Shown: positions 77 through 22,637 of the stretch, in pieces
How the letters are laid out: the number at the start of each line of letters is the position of its first letter
How positions within the stretch are numbered: position 1 is the stretch's first letter
From: Vagococcus intermedius
Lineage (GTDB): Bacteria; Bacillota; Bacilli; Lactobacillales; Vagococcaceae
NCBI RefSeq assembly: GCF_029144185.1
Contig: NZ_CP110232.1
Span: forward strand, 1,422,164-1,446,163
Direction: 5' to 3'
DNA length: 24,000 nt
Notes under the pieces: generated by a model
Database searches by the model: none
The model's input: the letters and a program-made list of their open reading frames with translations, nothing else
Told to the model about the DNA's origin: nothing
Translations under genes and position numbers: made by a program

Positions 77-1018
77 ATGAAAAAAAGTGAAGGCTATGCA
101 CATGGTAAGATTATTCTAATAGGTGAACACGCCGTAGTTTATGGTCAACCCTCAATTGCCCTGCCCTTCCCTGCTACCCAAATAAGAGCAACTATTACGC
201 CTAGTGAGATGAATAATCTTACAATTGAGTGCATGTTCTATAAAGGGTTATTAAACGACATGCCAGAGTTACTTGATAGTCTAAAAAAAGTGATTGAAGT
301 ATCTCTAAAACGGCTCAATCAACCAAATGCCTTTCTACATATAAAAATTGAAAGCACTATTCCTGCTGAACGCGGAATGGGATCTAGTGCTGCTGTTTCG
401 GTTGCCACAACACGAGCTCTTTTTGACTATTATAAGCAAAAATTAAGTCGTGAAGAATTACTTGATATCGTTAATATTGCTGAAATCATTGCTCACGGTA
501 ACCCTAGTGGCTTAGATGCTCTAATGACAAGTAGTTCTCAGCCTTATTATTTTATTAAAAATCAGACACCTGAACTTATTCAACCAAATTTAGATGCTGT
601 ACTAATAGTGGCTGATACTGGGGTCACCGGGCAAACTAAGAAAGTCGTCCAACAAATTGCGACTAAACTAAATCAAACTGATGGTAGCCACTATCAAGAA
701 ATGATGACAACAATTGGAGAACTCGTTAAAAAATCTCGTCTAGCTTTGACGCATAACCAAGCAGAGGAATTAGGAGCGTTATTAACTAACACCCATTCCT
801 TATTGTCCCAACTAGGAGCAACTAGCCCAGAGCTAGAACAGCTAGTTACCTGTGCCCTTGCTTCAGGCGCCTTAGGAGCAAAACTTACTGGCGGTGGTGG
901 CGGCGGCTGTATGATTGCTCTAGCCAAAAATACTACCGAGGCTAAACACATCGCCCAAAATTTAACACAAATAGGAGCCAAATCAACTTGGCTTTATGAA
1001 ATGAGTGACTTATCATGA
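77..1018 (+). CDS. mvk: mevalonate kinase (GHMP kinase family)
   Basis: 313-aa ORF with GKIILIGEHAVVYG N-terminus, GHMP motif PAERGMGSSAAV and C-terminal KLTGGGGGGC glycine loop. First gene of the mvk-mvaD-mvaK2-fni cluster. G-rich SD upstream of the ATG. Stop overlaps the next start (ATGA at 1015-1018). Confidence 0.9.
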   Translation: MKKSEGYAHGKIILIGEHAVVYGQPSIALPFPATQIRATITPSEMNNLTIECMFYKGLLNDMPELLDSLKKVIEVSLKRLNQPNAFLHIKIESTIPAERGMGSSAAVSVATTRALFDYYKQKLSREELLDIVNIAEIIAHGNPSGLDALMTSSSQPYYFIKNQTPELIQPNLDAVLIVADTGVTGQTKKVVQQIATKLNQTDGSHYQEMMTTIGELVKKSRLALTHNQAEELGALLTNTHSLLSQLGATSPELEQLVTCALASGALGAKLTGGGGGGCMIALAKNTTEAKHIAQNLTQIGAKSTWLYEMSDLS

Positions 1019-1992
1019 CAAATTTTGCAAAAGCTAAAGCCCATACTAATATTGCCCTAATTAAATATTGGGGCAAACGAGATGAACAATTATTTTTACC
1101 AATGAATAGTAGTCTCTCTTTAACCTTAGATGCTTTTTATACAGAGACCGAAGTGTTATTGGATGATAATTTAGAAAGTGATCAGTTCATATTAAATAAT
1201 GACATTCAGTCCCTAACGGAAACAAAAAAAATAACTGACTTCCTTAACCTGTTTAGAAAACAAGCTGGCATTACAACCCCAGCTAAAGTAACAAGCCAAA
1301 ATTTTGTCCCAACAGCTGCTGGCTTAGCTTCTTCTGCCTCAGCTTTTGCTGCCTTAGGATGTGCTATGAATCAAGTTACAAACTTAAATATGGATAAAAG
1401 TACACTATCAACTTATGTTCGCCGTGGTAGTGGTAGTGCTACTCGCAGCTTATTTGGAGGTTTTGTTGAATGGCAAATGGGGACGTGTTCGGAAGATAGC
1501 TTAGCTACTCCCGTAGATGATGCAAACTGGGATATTGGGATGATAACCGTGGCTGTTAATACTCAGAAAAAAACTGTTTCAAGTCGCAAAGGCATGAAAT
1601 TAACCGTTGAAACCTCTAATTTTTATCCTGCATGGCTTGAAAGTGCCGCAACGGATTTAGTTGCCATTAAAACAGCGATTAAACAGCAAGATTTTGAACA
1701 AGTCGGGCTAATTACCGAATCTAATGGGATGAAAATGCACGGCACAATGCTTGGTGCAACGCCTCCTTTTAGTTATTGGGAACCACGTACCTTAGAAGTT
1801 CTAACAAAAGTGCGACAATTACGTGGACAAGGGTGGCAGTGTTACTTTACAATGGACGCGGGACCTAATGTTAAAATATTATGTCGTTACTCAGATTCTC
1901 AAAAACTACAAAAATTTTTACAAGATGCCTTCCCTGATAACCCTGTTATCATTTCAAAAGTCGGCAGTGGTGTCGAATTGTTAGCTAAATAA
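1015..1992 (+). CDS. mvaD: diphosphomevalonate decarboxylase
   Basis: 325-aa ORF with NIALIKYWGKRD, AAGLASSASAFAAL and RRGSGSATRS motifs typical of MVD. Translationally coupled to mvk by a 4-nt overlap. Confidence 0.9.
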   Translation: MTNFAKAKAHTNIALIKYWGKRDEQLFLPMNSSLSLTLDAFYTETEVLLDDNLESDQFILNNDIQSLTETKKITDFLNLFRKQAGITTPAKVTSQNFVPTAAGLASSASAFAALGCAMNQVTNLNMDKSTLSTYVRRGSGSATRSLFGGFVEWQMGTCSEDSLATPVDDANWDIGMITVAVNTQKKTVSSRKGMKLTVETSNFYPAWLESAATDLVAIKTAIKQQDFEQVGLITESNGMKMHGTMLGATPPFSYWEPRTLEVLTKVRQLRGQGWQCYFTMDAGPNVKILCRYSDSQKLQKFLQDAFPDNPVIISKVGSGVELLAK

Positions 1993-2017
1993 TTCGATAA
2001 TAGAAAGGACGAAGAAA

Positions 2018-3109
2018 ATGATAGAAGCCAGTGCGCCGGGAAAACTATATATAGCAGGTGAATATGCTGTACTTGAACCTGGTCATCCAGCGATTTTGGT
2101 CGCATTAGATCAATTTATTACTGTAAAACTAAAAGAAGCTAAAAATCAAGGCAGCATTTGTTCAAGTTACTCCAACGGTTTGACTATTCCTTGGACTCGT
2201 AAAGATGGACAATTTTATATCGATGAACGTGAAAATCCTTTTACCTATGTCATTCAATCTGTTACGACGACTGAAAGTTATTTACAGGAACTTGGAAAAG
2301 ACCTAACCTTCTTTGATTTAGAAATTGAAAGTGACCTTGATAACAAAGATGGTCGTAAATATGGATTAGGTTCAAGCGGTGCGGTCACAGTTGCAACAAT
2401 CAAAGCGTTACTAACTTTTCACAATGTTACATTTGATGCTGAGCTGGTCTATAAACTTGCTGCGCTTACTCATTTGACTATTAAAAGTAATGGCTCCTTT
2501 GGTGATTTAGCTGCTAGTTCTTTTGGTGGATGGTTAGCCTATTCATGTTTTGATCGCGAGTGGGTACAAAAAAATAGAGAGACTCATTCGCTAAAAGCTT
2601 TACTAGAAATGACTTGGCCTAAACTGATGATTGAGCCCCTAACCCCACCTGACAATTTAAATTTATTAATAGGTTGGACAGGTAGCCCTGCTTCAACTAC
2701 TCATTTAGTTGATTTATTAAATGAAGAAATTAGCGATATTGACCATTACTATCCTATTTTCTTAAAAAATAGTTTTGACTGTGTCTCGACAATCATTTCA
2801 GCATTTAAACAGCATGACTTTGCTGCTATTCAACGAGGTATTCGTCAAAATAGAACGCTTTTACAACACTTAGGAGCTAATAGTGGCGTTCATATTGAAA
2901 CAGCTACGCTATTTGACTTATGTGAAGTAGCTGAGGATTATCATGGTGCCGCTAAATCTTCTGGTGCTGGTGGCGGAGATTGTGGCGTGGTCATCATCGA
3001 TAAGTCAATTGATACGACACCGCTCATTGAAGAATGGAAACAAGCGGATATTTGTCAATTAGATTTAACTGTTCATTATGAAGTACTTAGAAATGCTTGT
3101 CTTAAATAA
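2018..3109 (+). CDS. mvaK2: phosphomevalonate kinase (GHMP family)
   Basis: 363-aa ORF with APGKLYIAGEYAVLEPG N-terminus, GLGSSGAVTVA GHMP motif and KSSGAGGGDCG. Position between mvaD and fni matches Gram-positive mevalonate operons. Confidence 0.85.
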   Translation: MIEASAPGKLYIAGEYAVLEPGHPAILVALDQFITVKLKEAKNQGSICSSYSNGLTIPWTRKDGQFYIDERENPFTYVIQSVTTTESYLQELGKDLTFFDLEIESDLDNKDGRKYGLGSSGAVTVATIKALLTFHNVTFDAELVYKLAALTHLTIKSNGSFGDLAASSFGGWLAYSCFDREWVQKNRETHSLKALLEMTWPKLMIEPLTPPDNLNLLIGWTGSPASTTHLVDLLNEEISDIDHYYPIFLKNSFDCVSTIISAFKQHDFAAIQRGIRQNRTLLQHLGANSGVHIETATLFDLCEVAEDYHGAAKSSGAGGGDCGVVIIDKSIDTTPLIEEWKQADICQLDLTVHYEVLRNACLK

Positions 3110-3136
3110 TTTTTACTCATATTAGGAGGCCAATAG

Positions 3137-4198
3137 ATGTCTATTCAACAACATCGCAAAGATGAGCATGTCTCTCTTGCTACACAACAATATATCGACC
3201 AACCAGAGACTGATTTTGATGCAATCTCATTTGTTCATCACTCGCTACCCAATATCGATGTTTCAGAAGTCTCTCTTGCTACTGAGTTTGCGGATATGGA
3301 TTTTGATGTCCCAATTTATATAAATGGTATGACTGGTGGTAGTCCTAAAACCGCTAAAATTAATGAAGAACTCGCTATTGTTGCTAGAGAAACTGGACTA
3401 GCTATGGCTGCCGGTTCTGTTAGTGCTGCATTAAAACACTCTGATGTAGCAGAAAGTTATACTATAATTCGCAAAATGAATCCTAACGGTAAAATTTTTG
3501 CGAACTTAGGAGCTGAACATTCAGTTGAAAATGGGAAAAGAGCGGTTGATTTATTGCAAGCAGATGCCTTGCAAATTCATGTCAACGTTCCTCAAGAATT
3601 GATCATGCCTGAAGGTGAGCGTCGGTTCGCTACATGGTTAAGTTCGATTGAAAATATGGTCAGCCAAGTTGGTGTCCCTGTAATTGTCAAAGAAGTTGGT
3701 TTTGGGATGAGTCGTAAAACCATTCAACAACTTTTAAATATTGGCGTTAAAACAATTGATATTAGTGGTCGCGGAGGGACTAATTTTGCTGCTATCGAAA
3801 ATTCACGACGTAAGCACCATGATTTTTACTTTGCAGAAAATTGGGGACAGTCTACCCCAATTTCGCTAATTGAGGCCTATAATCAATCTGGTGCTTGTGA
3901 TATTCTAGCTTCTGGAGGTATTAGAACCTCTCTAGATATGATTAAAGCTTTTGCTTTAGGTGCCCATGCTTGTGGGTTATCTGGACAATTTTTACATCTG
4001 ATCCAAGAAGAAGGTGTTGATGAAACCATTATGACTGTCAACCGTTGGGAAGAACAATTAAAAATTATTATGACCTTACTTGGAGCTAAACGCTTAACTG
4101 AATTAAAGAAAACAGATGTGATTTTACGTGATCCAATTAAAACCTGGTGTGAAGCTCGTCATATCGATTGGACTCACTTTGCTAATCGTTCCAAATAA
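3137..4198 (+). CDS. fni: type 2 (FMN-dependent) isopentenyl-diphosphate delta-isomerase
   Basis: 353-aa ORF with RKDEHV near the N-terminus and NGMTGG, GRGGTNFAAIE and ASGGIR motifs. AGGAGG SD 8 nt upstream. Last gene of the mevalonate operon. Confidence 0.9.
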   Translation: MSIQQHRKDEHVSLATQQYIDQPETDFDAISFVHHSLPNIDVSEVSLATEFADMDFDVPIYINGMTGGSPKTAKINEELAIVARETGLAMAAGSVSAALKHSDVAESYTIIRKMNPNGKIFANLGAEHSVENGKRAVDLLQADALQIHVNVPQELIMPEGERRFATWLSSIENMVSQVGVPVIVKEVGFGMSRKTIQQLLNIGVKTIDISGRGGTNFAAIENSRRKHHDFYFAENWGQSTPISLIEAYNQSGACDILASGGIRTSLDMIKAFALGAHACGLSGQFLHLIQEEGVDETIMTVNRWEEQLKIIMTLLGAKRLTELKKTDVILRDPIKTWCEARHIDWTHFANRSK

Positions 4199-16254: not shown

Positions 16255-16384
16255 CATTTGCTAATTCTTTCTCACTAAAAAGGAGTTTTATTTATGTTAT
16301 TAACCAGTGTGGGTGGTATCACAAGTTATCGTTTAGGTCAGGTTATAAAAATACTTACTTAATCATAATTTGGAGGTTCTACTT

Positions 16385-17767
16385 ATGTCAAAAAAAATTA
16401 AATCGATTAGCTTCTTAGAAGCCTTACTTATTTTTACGATCATGATTGTACTTATCGGATCCAGCGTTATTAAATTTGGTCTTTCTCCCGTTAGTCCTAT
16501 TATTTTAACCATCAGTCTATTGATAGTCTGGGCACGTATTCGCCGCATTACTTGGAAAGATATTCACGTTGGCTTGGAGGATGGTGTTAAAACAGGGATT
16601 GTCCCAATTTTCATCTTTTTATTAATTGGTGCTTTAATTAGTAGTTGGATTGCTGCAGGTATTATTCCAGCTATGATGATTACTGGCTTCAAATTAGTGA
16701 ATATCAATTTCTTTGTTCCTTCAACTTTTCTAGTTTGTGCCATCATCGGGACTTCTATTGGAAGTGCCTTTACAACTGCTTCAACAGTCGGACTAGCCTT
16801 AATGGGAATGGGAATCACTCTTGGTTTTAATCCTGCCCTTGTTGCTGGAGCGATCATTTCAGGTGCTGTTTTTGGTGATAAAATGTCCCCCTTATCTGAT
16901 AGCACCAATCTTTCCGCTGCTATTGCCGGTGCTGACTTATTTAAGCACATCCGAAATATGATGTGGACAACTATTCCAGCTTTAGCCATTTCCTCGATTC
17001 TTTTCTTTTGGTTAGGTCGAAATATCTCAACGAGCGGAACGACTGATACCATTGAACAATTGACAACAACTTTAAATCAACATTTCTCGATTGGTTGGTG
17101 GTCAGCTATTCCTCTTATATTTATGTTAGGTTGCTCTTTATTTAAAGTTCCAGCTATTGCTACTTTATTAAGCAATATCATGATTTCATTTATCATCTTT
17201 TTAATACAGAAACCACAAACTAAATTAAGCGAAGTCGCCTCAATTATCGAAAATGGTTTTGTATCACAAACAGGAGTGCCCGATTTAGATACACTTTTAA
17301 GTCGGGGAGGGTTAGCTAGCATGTTGGGATCTGTCTCACTAATCATCTTAACTTTAGCCTTAGGTGGGATGTTAATGCACTTCGGCATCATTGAAGCGCT
17401 AATGAAACCTTTAACAACTAAACTAGTAAGTACTGCGTCATTAGTTATTGCTACCGTGATTGGTGGTATGATGACAAATATCATGATTGGTGAGCAATAC
17501 TTAGCAATTATTCTACCCGGTAAAGCTATCAAGCCTTCTTTTGATAAAAGTAACTTAGATCCAGTTGTACTATCACGAGCATTGGAAGACTCAGGAGCTG
17601 TTTTAAATGCTCTAGTCCCTTGGGGAGTAACAGGCGTTTTCATGGCCAATACCCTTGGTGTGCCCACGTTAAGTTACCTACCATTTAGTTTCTTCAATTT
17701 ATTATGTCCCGTTCTTTCAATTTTATCCGGATTGACTGGGATTGGTATTAAAATGAAAAAACAATAG
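16385..17767 (+). CDS. NhaC-family (Na+/H+ antiporter superfamily) transporter, probably an amino-acid (tyrosine) transporter given the T-box
   Basis: Polytopic membrane ORF of about 460 aa. I prefer the ATG at 16385 (GGAGG SD 8 nt upstream) over the TTG at 16370. The NhaC family assignment is by overall sequence character. The T-box upstream implies amino-acid-responsive control. Confidence 0.75.
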   Translation: MSKKIKSISFLEALLIFTIMIVLIGSSVIKFGLSPVSPIILTISLLIVWARIRRITWKDIHVGLEDGVKTGIVPIFIFLLIGALISSWIAAGIIPAMMITGFKLVNINFFVPSTFLVCAIIGTSIGSAFTTASTVGLALMGMGITLGFNPALVAGAIISGAVFGDKMSPLSDSTNLSAAIAGADLFKHIRNMMWTTIPALAISSILFFWLGRNISTSGTTDTIEQLTTTLNQHFSIGWWSAIPLIFMLGCSLFKVPAIATLLSNIMISFIIFLIQKPQTKLSEVASIIENGFVSQTGVPDLDTLLSRGGLASMLGSVSLIILTLALGGMLMHFGIIEALMKPLTTKLVSTASLVIATVIGGMMTNIMIGEQYLAIILPGKAIKPSFDKSNLDPVVLSRALEDSGAVLNALVPWGVTGVFMANTLGVPTLSYLPFSFFNLLCPVLSILSGLTGIGIKMKKQ

Positions 17768-17843: not shown

Positions 17844-18623
17844 TTATAATCTTGTTCTATCTTTTTCAAATAATAATAATAATTCTTCTAATGTTAAATT
17901 ACTTTTTTCTTCGGCTCCAATATCCGCTTTAATCTCCCCCTCTTCAAGTAAAATTAGCCGATTTCCATACTTGAGAGCATCTTCCATTCGATGAGTAATC
18001 ATTAAGCAAGTCAATTGGTCTGTATCAATTTTTTTAGCTGTCAGACTCATTAGATTAGCAGCCGTTTTCGGATCTAAAGCAGCTGTGTGTTCATCTAACA
18101 ATAATAATGTTGGCGGTTTTATCGTTGCCATCAATAGGCTCAATGCTTGCCTTTGTCCACCTGACAATTGTCCTGTCGGTGTTTCCAAATATTTTTCTAA
18201 ACCGTTATCAATTTTTTGACATAACTCTTTTAGAAGCTTTTTCTGTTCCTTGACATTTTGTTTCCTCAATTTTCTTTTTTCGCCACGTAACTTTGCTAAT
18301 AATAAATTTTCTGAAACAGTCATATTTGGAGCTGTTCCCATATGGGGATCTTGAAAAACTCGAGAAATCAACAACGCTCTTTCTTCTTCTTTTTTTAATG
18401 TGATATCTGTTTCACTAATCATCACAGTTCCTGAAGTTAACTTAGTAGTGCCGGCAATAATATTAAAAAGTGTTGATTTACCAGCTCCATTTCCTCCTAA
18501 TACTGTAATAAAGTCCCCTTTGTTTACTTGTAAAGTGATATTGTTCAAAAGTACCTGTTTATCATTGACACCATTGGCAATTTTCTTCACACCATTTCGT
18601 ATTTCTAAGACGATTTCTGGCAT
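17844..18623 (-). CDS. ABC transporter ATP-binding protein (COG1101-type)
   Basis: Walker A GGNGAGKST, signature LSGGQRQ, Walker B LLLLDEHTAALD. Its start abuts the permease stop. Confidence 0.9.
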   Translation of the reverse strand: MPEIVLEIRNGVKKIANGVNDKQVLLNNITLQVNKGDFITVLGGNGAGKSTLFNIIAGTTKLTSGTVMISETDITLKKEEERALLISRVFQDPHMGTAPNMTVSENLLLAKLRGEKRKLRKQNVKEQKKLLKELCQKIDNGLEKYLETPTGQLSGGQRQALSLLMATIKPPTLLLLDEHTAALDPKTAANLMSLTAKKIDTDQLTCLMITHRMEDALKYGNRLILLEEGEIKADIGAEEKSNLTLEELLLLFEKDRTRL

Positions 18624-19508
18624 TTATCTTTCCTCCGAACGTTTCATGACCTTATGATTCAAGTTAATTTTTAAAGTTGGAAGCATCAAGCAACTAGCCA
18701 GGACAACAGCAGATATTAATTTTAAATAATTTGTATTAAATCCTAATTTGATAACTAATAGTATTAATAATTGATACAATATACTGCCTACAACAATAGC
18801 AAGTAGTCGCTCTGATAATTGTAATTCTCCAAAGATAACTTCCCCAATAATAATTGAAGCTAAACCAATCACAATAATACCAATCCCTTTATCAACACTA
18901 GCATAGCCATCATTTTGGGCTAATAGCGCTCCAGATAAAGCTACCATCCCATTAGATAATGTTAAACCAATAATTTTCATTTTGTCTGTATTAATCCCAA
19001 ATGAACGTGCCATTTGTTCATTATCTCCTGTAGCGATATAAGCTTGCCCCAATTGAGTCTTTAGAAAAAATAATAATAATATTATTATCAAACTAACACT
19101 AATAACTCCGATTAATACCGTATCAAAATAATCCGGTAAATTTAAATTTTGAAACAGGTCATGGATCTTTTTCTGTTTTAATAACGAAAGACTTGGTGAT
19201 TTCATAACGAATAGGATCACTGAATTAGAAGCTGACATCACTAAAATCCCTGCTAATATAATGGGGATGTTCCCCTTTGTATACAATAGACCGGTCGTTA
19301 GACCAGCTAACATTCCTATTCCAACACCAAGTAACGTAGCTACTACTGGTGACATTCCTTGTGTAATTCCCATCACACAAACGGCTCCTCCTAATGGATA
19401 TGAACCCTCGACCGTCATATCAGGAAAGTTCAAAAGACGATACGTCATAAAAATTCCTAAACCTAATATTCCCCAAATTAATCCTTGTCCAATTGTTGAA
19501 ATTAACAT
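18624..19508 (-). CDS. ABC transporter permease (COG4120-type)
   Basis: 294-aa polytopic ORF lying between the SBP and ATPase genes of the same operon. Confidence 0.85.
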   Translation of the reverse strand: MLISTIGQGLIWGILGLGIFMTYRLLNFPDMTVEGSYPLGGAVCVMGITQGMSPVVATLLGVGIGMLAGLTTGLLYTKGNIPIILAGILVMSASNSVILFVMKSPSLSLLKQKKIHDLFQNLNLPDYFDTVLIGVISVSLIIILLLFFLKTQLGQAYIATGDNEQMARSFGINTDKMKIIGLTLSNGMVALSGALLAQNDGYASVDKGIGIIVIGLASIIIGEVIFGELQLSERLLAIVVGSILYQLLILLVIKLGFNTNYLKLISAVVLASCLMLPTLKINLNHKVMKRSEER

Positions 19509-19523
19509 GTTATTCCCTCATTT

Positions 19524-20522
19524 CTACTTAGTTTTACTTGCACTTTTTAATAGGTCGTCTGGAATCTTTATTCCTAATTTTTTTGCCTGTTCTTTATTTA
19601 TGACAACATCTCCTTTTGTAAATGTATAAATAGGTGTGGTAGCCGGCTGAGAGTCATTCCTTAAAATATCGGCAGTCATTTTCCCTGTCTGAACCCCCAA
19701 CTCATATTGGTTAATCCCAACAGTCGCTAACCCACCTTGGGCTACCATCGTATCAACTGAAGGCATAATTGGAATATTATTTTTTGTTGCTATATCAACA
19801 ACGATTTGCATAGCATTAGCAATGGTATTATCCGTAGGTAGATAAATTAAATCCACCTCTGAACTCATAACTTGAACCATTTGAGATATTTGATTACTCG
19901 AAGGAACTGGGTATTTTTTTACAAGCAACCCTCTTTTTCTCCCTTCTGCCACTACGCGACTAGCTTGAGCTTCAGAATTATCTTCTGCTGAGGAATATAA
20001 AACACCTACCTTTTTTAAAGTTGGCATGATTTTTTTAGCTAAATCTAATTGGGCGTCTACTGGTGATTGATCACTTACCCCTGTGATGTTCCCTCCTGGT
20101 TTTTGATTGTCAGCTACTAAATGAGCTGCTTGAGGATCAGTTATTGCTCCTAATACTATTGGTGTATTTGTTGTATTATTCGCCAAAGCTTGGGCAGCAG
20201 GTGTTGCAATTCCCACTAAAATATCGGCTTTTTTGTTTAGTAAGTATTGGCTCATCATGTTTAATTTACTTTGGTCAGCCTGCCCATTTTGAAATTCAAT
20301 TTTTAAATTTTTTTCAGATTCAAAGCCCTTTTCTGCCAAACCGTCTTGAATACCTCGGTAAATCTCATCTAGAGCTGGATGACTCACATATTGCAAAATC
20401 CCAACTGTTTTAGTTTCACGGTCCTGCTCTTTTTTCCTTGTTTCTTGCTTCTCGCTTACAAAAGTAGCTAGTACGATGATGATTAGTAGCAGCATCATCC
20501 CTAATAATCCTTTATTTTTCAT
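19524..20522 (-). CDS. ABC transporter substrate-binding protein (COG2984 / PF04392-type), membrane anchored
   Basis: I prefer the ATG at 20522 (GGAGG SD 8 nt upstream, MKNKGLLGMMLLLIIIVLATF signal/anchor). The track start at 20573 lies inside a terminator-like hairpin. The mature domain begins VGILQYVSHPALDEIYRGIQDGL, typical of this SBP family as I recall it. Confidence 0.8.
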   Translation of the reverse strand: MKNKGLLGMMLLLIIIVLATFVSEKQETRKKEQDRETKTVGILQYVSHPALDEIYRGIQDGLAEKGFESEKNLKIEFQNGQADQSKLNMMSQYLLNKKADILVGIATPAAQALANNTTNTPIVLGAITDPQAAHLVADNQKPGGNITGVSDQSPVDAQLDLAKKIMPTLKKVGVLYSSAEDNSEAQASRVVAEGRKRGLLVKKYPVPSSNQISQMVQVMSSEVDLIYLPTDNTIANAMQIVVDIATKNNIPIMPSVDTMVAQGGLATVGINQYELGVQTGKMTADILRNDSQPATTPIYTFTKGDVVINKEQAKKLGIKIPDDLLKSASKTK

Positions 20523-20554
20523 TTCTTCTTCCTCCATTCTTATATTTGGGTATA

Positions 20555-20592
20555 CAAAAAGACAATGACCCATTAATTGCAGTCATTGTCTT
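20555..20592 (-). terminator. second terminator-like hairpin (T2) in the ABC operon leader
   Basis: Minus strand: AAGACAATGAC (20592-20582) / GTCATTGTCTT (20569-20559) form an 11-bp perfect stem with a 12-nt loop. The stem runs into TTTTTG. It sits about 30 nt upstream of the SBP start codon. Confidence 0.5.
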
Positions 20593-20631
20593 AAAAATAG
20601 TACTAGTAGTCACCAACACTTTTATTAATAC

Positions 20632-20663
20632 AAAAAAACCACATAGATAAACACTCTACATGG
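20632..20663 (-). terminator. attenuator terminator (T1) in the ABC operon leader
   Basis: Minus-strand RNA: CCAUGUAGA (20663-20655) pairs with UCUAUGUGG (20647-20639). That gives 9 bp including two G.U pairs, which would be A.C mismatches on the + transcript. U7 (20638-20632) follows. Confidence 0.65.
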
Positions 20664-20682
20664 TTGGTTACTTACTTTTTAG

Positions 20683-20728
20683 CCACATAGATGCAAATTT
20701 AGAAGGTACTCTAAAAGTTGCATCTATG
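20683..20728 (-). promoter_or_regulatory. anti-antiterminator hairpin (segments A:B) of the ABC operon leader
   Basis: CATAGATGCAA (20728-20718) pairs perfectly with TTGCATCTATG (20696-20686), with an inner TTAGA/TCTAA extension. The 3' arm continues as ATCTATGTGG. That 10-mer is repeated exactly in the 3' arm of T1, so the T1 5' arm can pair with either copy. Confidence 0.6.
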
Positions 20729-20749
20729 AAAGAATCTTCATACACACAA

Positions 20750-20812
20750 CTATCTACGCCAGCTTTGCCAAGCATTCATTTGTTCTTTTTTGATAAGTGT
20801 TAGTTGTGTCAT
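20750..20812 (-). CDS. candidate leader peptide MTQLTLIKKEQMNAWQSWRR (two Trp codons)
   Basis: 20-codon ORF with a GAGG-type SD (AGAGGG) 7 nt upstream of the ATG. It starts about 30 nt downstream of the predicted transcription start. Trp codons are at positions 15 and 18, followed by Arg-Arg-stop. It lies upstream of alternative terminator/antiterminator helices. Confidence 0.4.
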   Translation of the reverse strand: MTQLTLIKKEQMNAWQSWRR

Positions 20813-20846
20813 GAAAATCCCTCTCTTCTCTTTTAATATAAGCCAT

Positions 20847-20875
20847 AGTTTACTTGGCTATAACTCTCTTGTCAA
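20847..20875 (-). promoter_or_regulatory. sigma-A promoter of the ABC operon leader
   Basis: Minus strand: TTGACA (20875-20870), 17-nt spacer, TAAACT (20852-20847). Confidence 0.65.
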
Positions 20876-20892
20876 CCTTTTTTTTATCTTAA

Positions 20893-20931
20893 TAAAAAAA
20901 ACAACTTCTCTCGATAGCTTTGAGAAGCTGT
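20893..20931 (-). terminator. rho-independent terminator of fhs
   Basis: Minus-strand RNA: ACAGCUUCUC / GAGAAGUUGU form a 10-bp stem (one G.U, which is A.C on the + transcript) with an 11-nt loop, followed by U7 (A7 at 20894-20900 on +). Confidence 0.75.
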
Positions 20932-20960
20932 TTTTATTAAACTAATTGAACGTTTTTTAA

Positions 20961-22637
20961 TTAAAACAAACCAGTAATTTGACCTGATTCATTAACATCA
21001 ATTGAATTAGCAGCTGGGATTTTCGGTAAACCTGGCATGGTCATAACATCTCCTGTATAAACGACAATAAAGCCCGCTCCAGCTGAAACTTTGATCTGAC
21101 TAACTTCAATCGTAAAGTCGGTCGGAGCACCTAGTAAACTGGGATCATCTGAAAATGAGTACTGGGTTTTAGCCATACAAACAGGTAACTTACCATAACC
21201 TAAGTGCTCCAGTTTAGCCATTGCTGTTTTCGCTGATTTAGCAAAACTCACACCCGATCCTCCATAGATTTTTTGGACTACTTCGGTAATTTTATCAGCA
21301 ATTGGTTGCTCATTATCATAAGCGTAAGAGAAATTATTTTCAGACGAATCACACATAGCAACGACTTCCTCTGCTAAAGCAACGCCTCCTGATCCTCCTT
21401 GGCCCCAAACGTCAGATAATACCACTTTTACATTTAATTCTTGACATTTTGCAGTAATTAGCGCTATTTCTTCTTCTGAATCGGTTGGGAATTTATTAAT
21501 CGCAACGACTGCTGGTAAATGATAAACATCAGTTATATTTGAAACATGCTTTAATAAATTAGGCAATCCAGCTTCTAAGGCCGTAAGGTCCACTTCTGAA
21601 AGTTGGTTCTTAGCTAAGCCACCATGCATTTTTAAAGCACGAACAGTTGCCACTACCACTACCGCACTTGGTGTAATGTTCGCTTGACGGCACTTGATAT
21701 CTAAAAATTTCTCAGCCCCTAAATCTGCCCCAAAACCGGCCTCAGTGACAACATATTCACCTAATTTCATAGCCGTTTTAGTAGCAATTACTGAATTACA
21801 ACCATGAGCAATATTGGCAAATGGGCCACCATGAATAATCGCTGGATTTTTTTCTAATGTTTGAACTAAATTAGGTTTAATAGCTTCTTTCAGAAGAGCT
21901 GTCATTGCACCTTCGGCTTTCAAGTCACCTGCTGTCACAGGTTCGTTATCTCGTGTATAAGCAACGATCATTTGACGTAAACGATTTTTCAAATCCTTTA
22001 AATCTGTCGCTAAACATAGAACTGCCATGATTTCAGAAGCGACAGTAATTTCAAACCCATCTTCTCGTGGAATACCATTTACACGTGCACCTAACCCATT
22101 TACAATACTACGTAATTGCCGATCATTCATGTCAACACAACGTTTCCAAGTAATACGATTAACATCAATATCCAGCATATTTCCTTGGTGAATATGATTA
22201 TCTAACAAAGCTGCTAACAAATTATTAGCCGCACCAATAGCATGAAAGTCTCCTGTAAAATGTAAGTTAATATCTTCCATTGGGACTACTTGGGCATACC
22301 CACCACCGGCAGCTCCCCCTTTAATGCCAAAGACTGGTCCTAAAGATGGCTCACGTAAAGCAATCACAGCTTTTTTACCAATCTTGTTTAAAGCATCTCC
22401 CAAGCCAACAACTGTCGTTGTTTTTCCTTCCCCAGCAGGTGTGGGTGTAATGGCTGTCACCAAAATAACTTTTCCTGTTGCCTCTTTATCGGCTAATGTT
22501 GCCACGTCAATTTTAGCCTTATAATTACCAAATAATTCTAAATTTTGACGTGTTAAATTTAATTTTTTAGCGACCTCTTCAATCATCACCATTTTGTTGG
22601 TTTGTGCTATTTCTATATCTGTTAAATACTCTGTCAT
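20961..22637 (-). CDS. fhs: formate--tetrahydrofolate ligase
   Basis: 558-aa ORF with [11 protein letters not shown]-loop region, [19 protein letters not shown], and a C-terminal [10 protein letters not shown]-type tail characteristic of FTHFS. AAGGGGGA SD upstream. Confidence 0.92.

Follow-up and report, generated by a model that had tools for sequence, protein, structure and literature searches.

The window analyzed here is the whole 24,000-nucleotide (nt) stretch of the Vagococcus intermedius contig NZ_CP110232.1 (positions 1,422,164 to 1,446,163), and the subject of this study is the leader of trpXYZ, a minus-strand operon for an ATP-binding cassette (ABC) transporter, together with the RNA motif RF04312 (the trpB motif) contained in that leader and a short open reading frame (ORF) with tryptophan (Trp) codons that precedes the motif. 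The trpX product matched the NCBIfam TrpX equivalog NF041285 at 457 bits (cut-off 390), and the operon matched the Pfam families PF04392, PF02653 (BPD_transp_2 permease), and PF00005 (ABC ATPase); the initial annotation, made from the sequence without database searches, had pointed to a transporter family that includes the predicted TrpXYZ. The nearest named TrpX is that of Vagococcus salmoninarum (71% identity). In Streptococcus suis, Trp uptake by TrpX/TrpXYZ has experimental support, and the system is induced through a T-box when Trp is limiting (PMC9382623). The features of the leader and operon are listed below from the promoter onward, with the pairing segments of the RNA named A0, B0, A, B, C, and D and a colon denoting a helix between two of them.

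20875-20847, minus strand: sigma-70-type promoter, TTGACA-17-TAAACT (consensus scan, 10 of 12 matches)
20824-20818, minus strand: leader Shine-Dalgarno (SD) sequence AGAGGGA, with GAGG 7 nt upstream of the ATG
20812-20750, minus strand: leader ORF of 20 codons plus UAG, encoding MTQLTLIKKEQMNAWQSWRR; UGG at codons 15 and 18 (20770-20768 and 20761-20759)
20763-20751, minus strand: A0 (segment 1), within the last leader codons, complementary to the 3' shoulder of B
20751-20716, minus strand: B0:A hairpin followed by UUUU (B0 20751-20739, A 20728-20717)
20627-20730, minus strand: full-length RF04312 match (67.0 bits, gathering threshold 59, E = 2.4e-9, model positions 1-107)
20728-20686, minus strand: P1 (A:B, 11 base pairs (bp)) with an inner hairpin at 20716-20698; the 5' hairpin of RF04312 and putative anti-antiterminator
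20728-20718, minus strand: segment A, CATAGATGCAA
20696-20686, minus strand: segment B, TTGCATCTATG
20692-20683 and 20648-20639, minus strand: exact 10-nt repeat, ATCTATGTGG
20696-20655, minus strand: antiterminator B:C, formed by the B shoulder AUCUAUGUGG and the C strand CCAUGUAGA (9 bp, two of them G-U)
20663-20655, minus strand: segment C, CCATGTAGA
20665-20630, minus strand: terminator T1 (C:D, 11 bp, loop of 7) with U7; called at 20665-20637 by the terminator scan
20638-20632, minus strand: U7 run
20592-20555, minus strand: T2, a second hairpin with U5, between T1 and the trpX SD (-12.3 kcal/mol, z -4.5)
17844-20535, minus strand: trpXYZ operon, comprising SD 20535-20531, trpX 20522-19524, the permease gene 19508-18624, and the ATPase gene 18623-17844

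The promoter, the SD-preceded ORF with its two Trp codons, segments A, B, and C, the 10-nt repeat, and the U7 run had all been proposed previously and were recovered at the same positions. The promoter consensus match alone was not significant relative to shuffles; the arrangement TTGAC(A/G)-17-TA(A/C)ACT was also found upstream of the leaders in loci L001, L002, and L010.

Covariance-model searches returned RF04312 as the sole Rfam match at the gathering threshold within the window. Narunsky et al. 2024 introduced this family as a strong riboswitch candidate, SRC-39-1, with more than 900 representatives in Firmicutes and Fusobacteria, most of them upstream of an uncharacterized ABC transporter (the commonest associated gene) and some upstream of trpB, and with an antiterminator situated in the right shoulder of P1; its authors "cannot rule out" a classic attenuator or a protein factor (PMC11109978). 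The window shows this arrangement: P1 is followed by an intrinsic terminator, the 10-nt P1 shoulder recurs exactly in the 3' arm of the terminator, and both lie in the 5' untranslated region of trpX and the permease and ATPase genes; trpB-linked relatives in our sample are L025 and L099. The model begins at 20730, 20 nt past the leader stop codon, and the leader ORF lies outside of it. The RNA motif itself has been catalogued since 2024 and is not new; no later paper on it was found in the literature searched, and its leader peptide and mechanism appear to be undescribed so far. An opposite-strand RF04312 match (28.5 bits) was rejected as a reflection of the palindromic P1; only in the minus-strand RNA do the G-U pairs of P1, B0:A, and T1 exist. 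The palindrome was also rejected as a DNA operator, as P1 lies ~120 nt downstream of the promoter and its pairing is kept via G-U pairs.

The leader was compared across 35 distinct examples from two phyla (Enterococcaceae, Aerococcus, Carnobacterium, Trichococcus, Lactobacillaceae, and Fusobacterium), which came from four sources: relatives of TrpX in reference genomes, with a TrpX scan of genome contigs giving only eight loci; a metagenome scan by a P1-only pattern, followed by a filter blind to the leader; a Fusobacterium vincentii chromosome reached by BLAST against plasmids (one useful match); and contigs encoding diverse TrpX homologues. L054, which fits the search pattern by chance, and L013, which carries a homopolymer frameshift, were dropped from the set, and two scans of viral contigs for more distant members gave no real match. 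Nine loci in the sample passed the Rfam threshold (the window, L001, L002, L010, L025, L099, L032, L041, and the Fusobacterium locus L129), and the leader ORF was present in all nine. The L129 record, NZ_CP084075.1, is filed as a plasmid in PLSDB but at 2.1 Mb is a chromosome; the full motif and leader ORF lie at 3927-4118 with no obvious same-strand gene downstream, the next gene being AraC/GyrI-like and on the opposite strand.

In 35 of 35 leaders an ATG begins an open frame of 14-23 codons, whose N-terminus and length vary; the other two frames are open in 3 and 21 of the 35, respectively. Scoring placed an SD-like core 7-12 nt upstream of this ATG in 33 leaders, and one more was recognized by eye (GGAGGAG in L003), making 34; the Oenococcus oeni leader (L137) has none. 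A UGG codon is invariant: each peptide has one to three Trp codons among its last three to nine, and Trp makes up 61 of the 622 leader residues. All three types of stop codon are used. From Fusobacterium to Lacticaseibacillus the codon after the sensing UGG is nearly always CAA (Gln) and rarely CGN (20770-20765 in the window). The proposal of a two-Trp leader ORF and mutually exclusive helices upstream of a Trp uptake operon is thus supported by the wider sample. Representative peptides or C-termini, each ending at its stop codon, are as follows.

Enterococcus (L002): MNRLSKPIKELNNSWQNWRR
Vagococcus lutrae: MKDYQTKTRALPELNMAWQNWRR
trpB-linked L025: MTFTATQSWQSWHR
Fusobacterium: MKQILTTTMRYWQNWHR
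Aerococcus: MSLKQITTFSWQIRMV
Trichococcus: ...GKSWQSRIV
Carnobacterium: ...NRNWQSQNR
Lacticaseibacillus: ...SAWQSQL and ...NGWWQS
Agrilactobacillus: ...TAWWQSR
Apilactobacillus: ...SSWQGWQY

Pairing in the alignment was judged against a control in which the partner strand was slid along the alignment (24-52% of slid cells paired overall), and folding significance was expressed as a z-score relative to shuffles, both for the window and as a family mean. P1 folds at -18.5 kcal/mol in the window (z -7.6; family mean z -5.8, 95.3% of cells paired) and T1 at -11.5 kcal/mol (z -4.7; family mean z -6.1, 98.8% paired), with four T1 pairs changed on both sides. P1, its inner hairpin, and T1 together have 91.6% of cells paired. 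The antiterminator B:C taken alone in the window is not significant (-7.4 kcal/mol, z -1.1); across the family it is (mean z -3.2, 95.5% of cells paired).

Two further helices lie upstream of the published motif. A0 forms a duplex with B of -12.5 kcal/mol in the window and -9 to -18 kcal/mol in 31 of 32 leaders (mean z -4.0), with 90.9% of cells paired in comparison to 26-52% in the slid controls. In most leaders of every group this duplex starts 7-8 nt after the conserved UGG, and the distance from UGG to stop codon varies. Between groups A0 changes in step with B and C, reading GGCGUAGAUA in the main group, CCGCAUGG in Aerococcus, and GCCAAC.GUAGG in Lacticaseibacillus; the amino acids that it encodes also differ between groups, and the A0 codons are kept within groups and not between them because A0 changes together with B and C. 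B0, a 13-nt segment that overlaps the last two bases of the stop codon and extends downstream, pairs with A in a hairpin of -14.4 kcal/mol (z -5.15) in the window and -14.3 kcal/mol (z -5.1) in the family mean, with 90.3% of cells paired relative to 29-52% when slid. Its pair at alignment columns 41-56 occurs as GC, AU, CG, and UA, its basal pair switches from A-U to G-C, and its apical stem varies with compensation; RNAalifold applied to the B0:A sub-alignment recovered only 8 basal pairs, MAFFT having misaligned the variable apex. Each strand has a choice of partners (A with B0 or B; B with A, A0, or C; C with B or D; and D with C or a segment E described below), and the need for each strand to serve two or three partners is enough to account for the unusual sequence conservation that gave P1 the look of an aptamer.

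T2 follows T1 directly in 22 of 27 lineages (also in L001-L003, L010, L012, L026, and others), at a distance of 3-13 nt in most trpX-linked Lactobacillales, and is absent from the trpB-linked, Fusobacterium, and Trichococcus copies. Pairing is also possible between D with its U run and the 5' arm and loop of T2 (helix D:E; mean z -2.8, negative in 19 of 19; -1.8 to -1.95 in the window), which suggests that T1 and T2 are coupled in tandem. If T1 did not form, D would be free to block T2; if T1 formed and were read through, T2 would offer a second chance of termination. In Carnobacterium L133 the interval between T2 and the trpX start holds an extra SD-preceded upstream ORF (uORF) that has two Trp codons (MRQWTSQRWQSK, ~1408-1446) and would be a second Trp-sensing step.

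Four Lacticaseibacillus leaders (L004, L134, L138, and L139) have the P1 sequence replaced by the GC-rich strands GCGACCUGCC and GCAGGUCGU and are detected only weakly by RF04312 (38.5 and 32.1 bits); the ORF, the terminator, the B:C antiterminator, and the alternative A:B pairing are all retained, as is a hairpin that begins 2 nt beyond the stop codon, and folding predicts exactly this alternation. Between L004 and L134 there is a three-way compensatory change (C to U in B0, G to A in A, and C to U in B). The O. oeni trpX leader (~1082-1185), MNDIQVNNQAWWWLV, is unrelated, without an obvious SD or a match in Rfam, and has a simple three-segment attenuator for which ribosome-mask folding, described next, discriminated as expected, giving 1.00 and 0.85 with the ribosome on the Trp codons versus 0.30 on the stop codon. 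No recognizable motif or Trp leader lies upstream of trpX in Mobiluncus (L131) or Levilactobacillus koreensis (L135), and the regulation of trpX is therefore heterogeneous: T-box, trpB motif, WWW attenuator, or none visible.

A ribosome's footprint reaches ~12-15 nt past the first base of the codon in the A site. The effect of such a ribosome on the leader was modeled by folding nascent RNAs cut just before D, with the covered bases held single-stranded, in 27 leaders; the predicted pairing probabilities (P) were as follows.

Ribosome on the first Trp codon: P(B0:A) 0.89, P(P1) 0.05, P(B:C) 0.85; P(B:C) above 0.5 in 96% of leaders
Ribosome on the last Trp codon: P(B0:A) 0.63, P(P1) 0.14, P(B:C) 0.78; P(B:C) above 0.5 in 85% of leaders
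Ribosome on the stop codon: P(B0:A) 0.00, P(P1) 0.83, P(B:C) 0.20; P(B:C) above 0.5 in 11% of leaders
No ribosome: P(B0:A) 0.90, P(P1) 0.02, P(B:C) 0.43; P(B:C) above 0.5 in 44% of leaders

The calculations thus give the expected switch in the main group: B:C is favored while the ribosome is stalled, and P1 with the terminator once the peptide has been completed. The contrast was robust for footprints of +9 to +15 nt, and the better-placed Trp codon moved from the last to the first as the footprint grew, which provides a rationale for the W-x-x-W spacing.

From the elements in the transcript, in the order A0, B0, A, B, C, and D with its U run, and the helices open to them (A0:B, B0:A, A:B or P1, the antiterminator B:C, and the terminator C:D), we infer the following sequence of events, in which the ORF would be translated and the outcome would depend on ribosome stalling, on folding kinetics, and on any pausing of the polymerase. 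When Trp is scarce, the ribosome would stall on UGG and cover A0, leaving B0 free to hold A; B would then be without a partner until C emerges, B:C would form, the terminator would be blocked, and trpXYZ would be transcribed. When Trp is sufficient, the ribosome would reach the stop codon and cover B0, and A would be released to pair with B as P1; C would then be free to form C:D, and transcription would end at U7. With no ribosome, A0:B together with B0:A would also sequester B, and the terminator would form. We propose that B0:A senses where the ribosome is and also serves as a pause hairpin; with the UUUU that follows, it could hold up transcription long enough for the ribosome to catch up.

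This scheme modifies the initial annotation in several respects. The 1:2/2:3/3:4 logic suggested there holds as regards the alternation, with A0 and not A as segment 1. The position of the stop codon 21 nt upstream of A, raised as an obstacle to a stalled ribosome covering A, is real and is resolved by A0, which pairs with B, and B0, which pairs with A. A mini-ORF at 20741-20724, offered as a possible coupling device, exists but was rejected as not conserved, with no ATG in 6 of 27 leaders and a scattered stop position. The direction of regulation, which had been left undecided, can now be assigned in silico: the model predicts that the operon is ON when Trp is scarce, as expected for an uptake operon and for trpB.

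We consider it quite probable that the leader regulates trpXYZ by ribosome-mediated transcription attenuation of a relay design, in which a leader peptide would register how much charged tRNA-Trp is available. The extension of this reading to the whole RF04312 class is possible and distinctly more tentative, and we would stop short of calling it likely; it would have two ribosome positions 9-18 nt apart, with a ribosome on UGG masking A0 and one on the stop codon also melting B0:A, so that the released A, and not the ribosome, shuts the antiterminator 55 nt downstream, and with the decision passed to the second terminator through D:E.

Several observations weigh against the attenuator as described. 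Equilibrium folding of the full-length leader gives the terminator under any mask (mean P 0.94-0.98), and antitermination must therefore be a kinetic trap, as in classical models. Folding of the truncated RNA fails to discriminate between ribosome positions in the Lacticaseibacillus and Agrilactobacillus variants. The initial annotation had looked to orthologous leaders for conservation of the ORF and its Trp codons and for covariation of the helices; the former holds in all 35, and the latter is thin in the main group, in which the sequences are very conserved and the A0:B covariation in particular is weak and not clearly above shuffles. Several lineages have one Trp codon only, and the near-invariant CAA lies outside of every defined helix and is not accounted for by the scheme. 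The leaders compared are only part of the more than 900 members of RF04312. At least some Firmicutes are considered to couple transcription and translation only weakly, and Johnson and colleagues (2020) reportedly found transcription and translation to be uncoupled in Bacillus subtilis. A further source supports such uncoupling in B. subtilis (PMC11698733). If valid in the bacteria considered here, uncoupling would work against ribosome-mediated attenuation unless RNA polymerase pauses.

Of the other explanations weighed, a metabolite riboswitch would make P1 an aptamer for Trp or a related compound, with the ligand-stabilized P1 hiding the antiterminator shoulder and the ORF being incidental or serving for fine tuning. 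The listing of RF04312 as a strong riboswitch candidate (PMC11109978), the strong conservation of the P1 stem nucleotides and of the RAC bulge, and a P1-terminator logic that could run without a ribosome all speak in its favor. As a hairpin, however, P1 is simple; its apical loop varies, very few of its unpaired bases are conserved, and the conservation of its stem is accounted for by the two or three partners of each strand. Lacticaseibacillus swaps the P1 sequence completely yet retains the ORF and the alternating helices, which argues against a P1 that binds a ligand or a protein, and a pure riboswitch would have no need of the ATG, open frame, and Trp codon found in 35 of 35 leaders or the SD found in 34. 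We regard this explanation as improbable. A Trp-activated or tRNA-sensing protein, or another trans-acting factor, that binds P1 or the AUAGAU/AUCUAU repeats seems slightly less probable again, even though the RF04312 authors could not exclude a protein factor (PMC11109978), a ~10-nt element occurs six times in alternating orientation, and the sequence is conserved beyond the needs of pairing. It would leave the conserved Trp-codon ORF unexplained, the elements in question are replaced in Lacticaseibacillus, and no candidate regulator gene was linked to the motif in the loci examined. Protein-mediated attenuation, as by TRAP or PyrR, is frequent in Firmicutes and counts toward such a factor; a TRAP site was rejected for this leader, where (G/U)AG triplets spaced by 2-3 nt occur in chains of at most 2, versus the 9-11 needed. 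The leader also contains no other Rfam family: no T-box emerged when the window was scanned at the gathering threshold or the leader at E <= 1, and the enterobacterial Trp_leader was not matched at E <= 1 within 20400-21000.

A sensor of the TnaC kind, in which free Trp and a nascent ...WQxWRR peptide would prevent peptide release at the stop codon and the ribosome held there would lie over B0 to give P1 and the terminator at high Trp, was also weighed. It predicts the same direction of regulation, a ribosome held at the stop codon is exactly the state that yields P1 in the mask calculation, and Trp and Gln are conserved at fixed positions, with CAA following UGG. The distance from Trp to the stop codon, however, is 3, 4, 5, 6, 8, or 9 codons, the C-termini differ by group (RR, HR, RG, MV, IV, QL, QS, SR, and YKTLY), and all three stop codons occur, whereas the distance from UGG to A0 is constant, which points to codon-level sensing. 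We hold this to be the least probable of the explanations considered and retain the ribosome-mediated attenuator as the preferred reading of the leader.

Upstream of the operon lies fhs, which has its own terminator, and downstream lies a convergent Na+/H+ antiporter gene. The trpX start is ATG 20522 (332 amino acids), after the SD GGAGG at 20535-20531 and in agreement with homologues; the mechanical ORF start at 20573 over-extends the gene by 17 codons. Two minus-strand ORFs of 162 and 196 amino acids (16564-17667) have no Pfam match, lie opposite the plus-strand PF03553 antiporter gene (16370-17767), and are probably spurious. At the other end of the window, plus-strand genes at 77-4198 encode enzymes of the mevalonate pathway (mevalonate kinase, diphosphomevalonate decarboxylase, phosphomevalonate kinase, and an FMN-dependent isomerase-like protein), as would suit DNA of Enterococcaceae or Lactobacillales. 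Elsewhere in the sample, the small RNA family RF02863 ("Enterococcus sRNA 2410") was matched in L032 (1899-2090) and L088 (2297-2457), each ~3 kb from the trpX leader, and near the threshold in L008 (1745-1939), ~1.1 kb upstream of the trpX match.

If the attenuator reading is correct, it would supply a mechanism for one of the eleven "strong riboswitch candidates" of 2024, taking it off the orphan list and sparing futile hunts for a ligand, and classical ribosome-mediated Trp attenuation would be common in lactic acid bacteria, enterococci, and fusobacteria. Translation-dependent Trp sensing would then be widespread in Lactobacillales and Fusobacteria, where textbooks assign the Trp control of Firmicutes to T-boxes or TRAP. 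The groups concerned include pathogens in which TrpX matters in the host (S. suis and Enterococcus faecalis). The architecture would tell a stall at a Trp codon from a stop codon only a few codons later by way of a nested hairpin and not by direct masking, and it may chain two terminators. It also bears on the extent of transcription-translation coupling in Firmicutes; given the uncoupling in B. subtilis, a ribosome-mediated attenuator in this phylum is not to be assumed, which is part of its interest.

Precedents exist for both the change of classification and the mechanism. The Corynebacterium ilvB motif (uORFC-75-1) was at first considered a riboswitch before it proved to be a uORF attenuator, and His leader-peptide attenuators have been predicted in some Firmicutes (PMC9413887); these cases concern other amino acids, lineages, and architectures, and neither is a Trp attenuator of Lactobacillales or Fusobacteria. 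In comparison to the published model of RF04312, which starts at P1, the leader ORF, A0, B0:A, and T2 lie outside and are not described there (PMC11109978). The trpXYZ T-box of S. suis shares with the system proposed here the operon, the logic of induction at low charged tRNA-Trp, and a choice between terminator and antiterminator (PMC9382623). It differs in that a T-box, of which none was detected here, reads uncharged tRNA directly and needs no translation.

In its proposed working the leader resembles the trpL attenuator of Escherichia coli, with which it shares a short peptide with Trp codons, a segment 1 beside those codons, a terminator with a U run, a similar range of hairpin energies, and, by prediction, termination when translation does not occur. 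The 1:2, 2:3, and 3:4 alternation of trpL corresponds to A0:B, B:C, and C:D, which makes A0 segment 1, B segment 2, C segment 3, and D segment 4. The resemblance is one of analogy and not homology, there being no Trp_leader match, and the Trp codons here are spaced as W-x-x-W, not in tandem as in trpL. The stop codon here also lies ~55 nt from segment 2, which the ribosome cannot cover; instead, a ribosome at the stop codon would melt the nested B0:A, and the freed A would sequester segment 2 in P1. The leader also resembles the his, leu, thr, and ilv leaders of enterobacteria, in which more than four alternating segments relay the position of the ribosome through mutually exclusive hairpins, and it has a comparable chain of more than four segments along which that position would be passed. 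Those leaders belong to Proteobacteria and have long runs of regulatory codons, in contrast to the one or two Trp codons of the present system, which spans Firmicutes and Fusobacteria and possibly extends its chain to a second terminator coupled through D:E.

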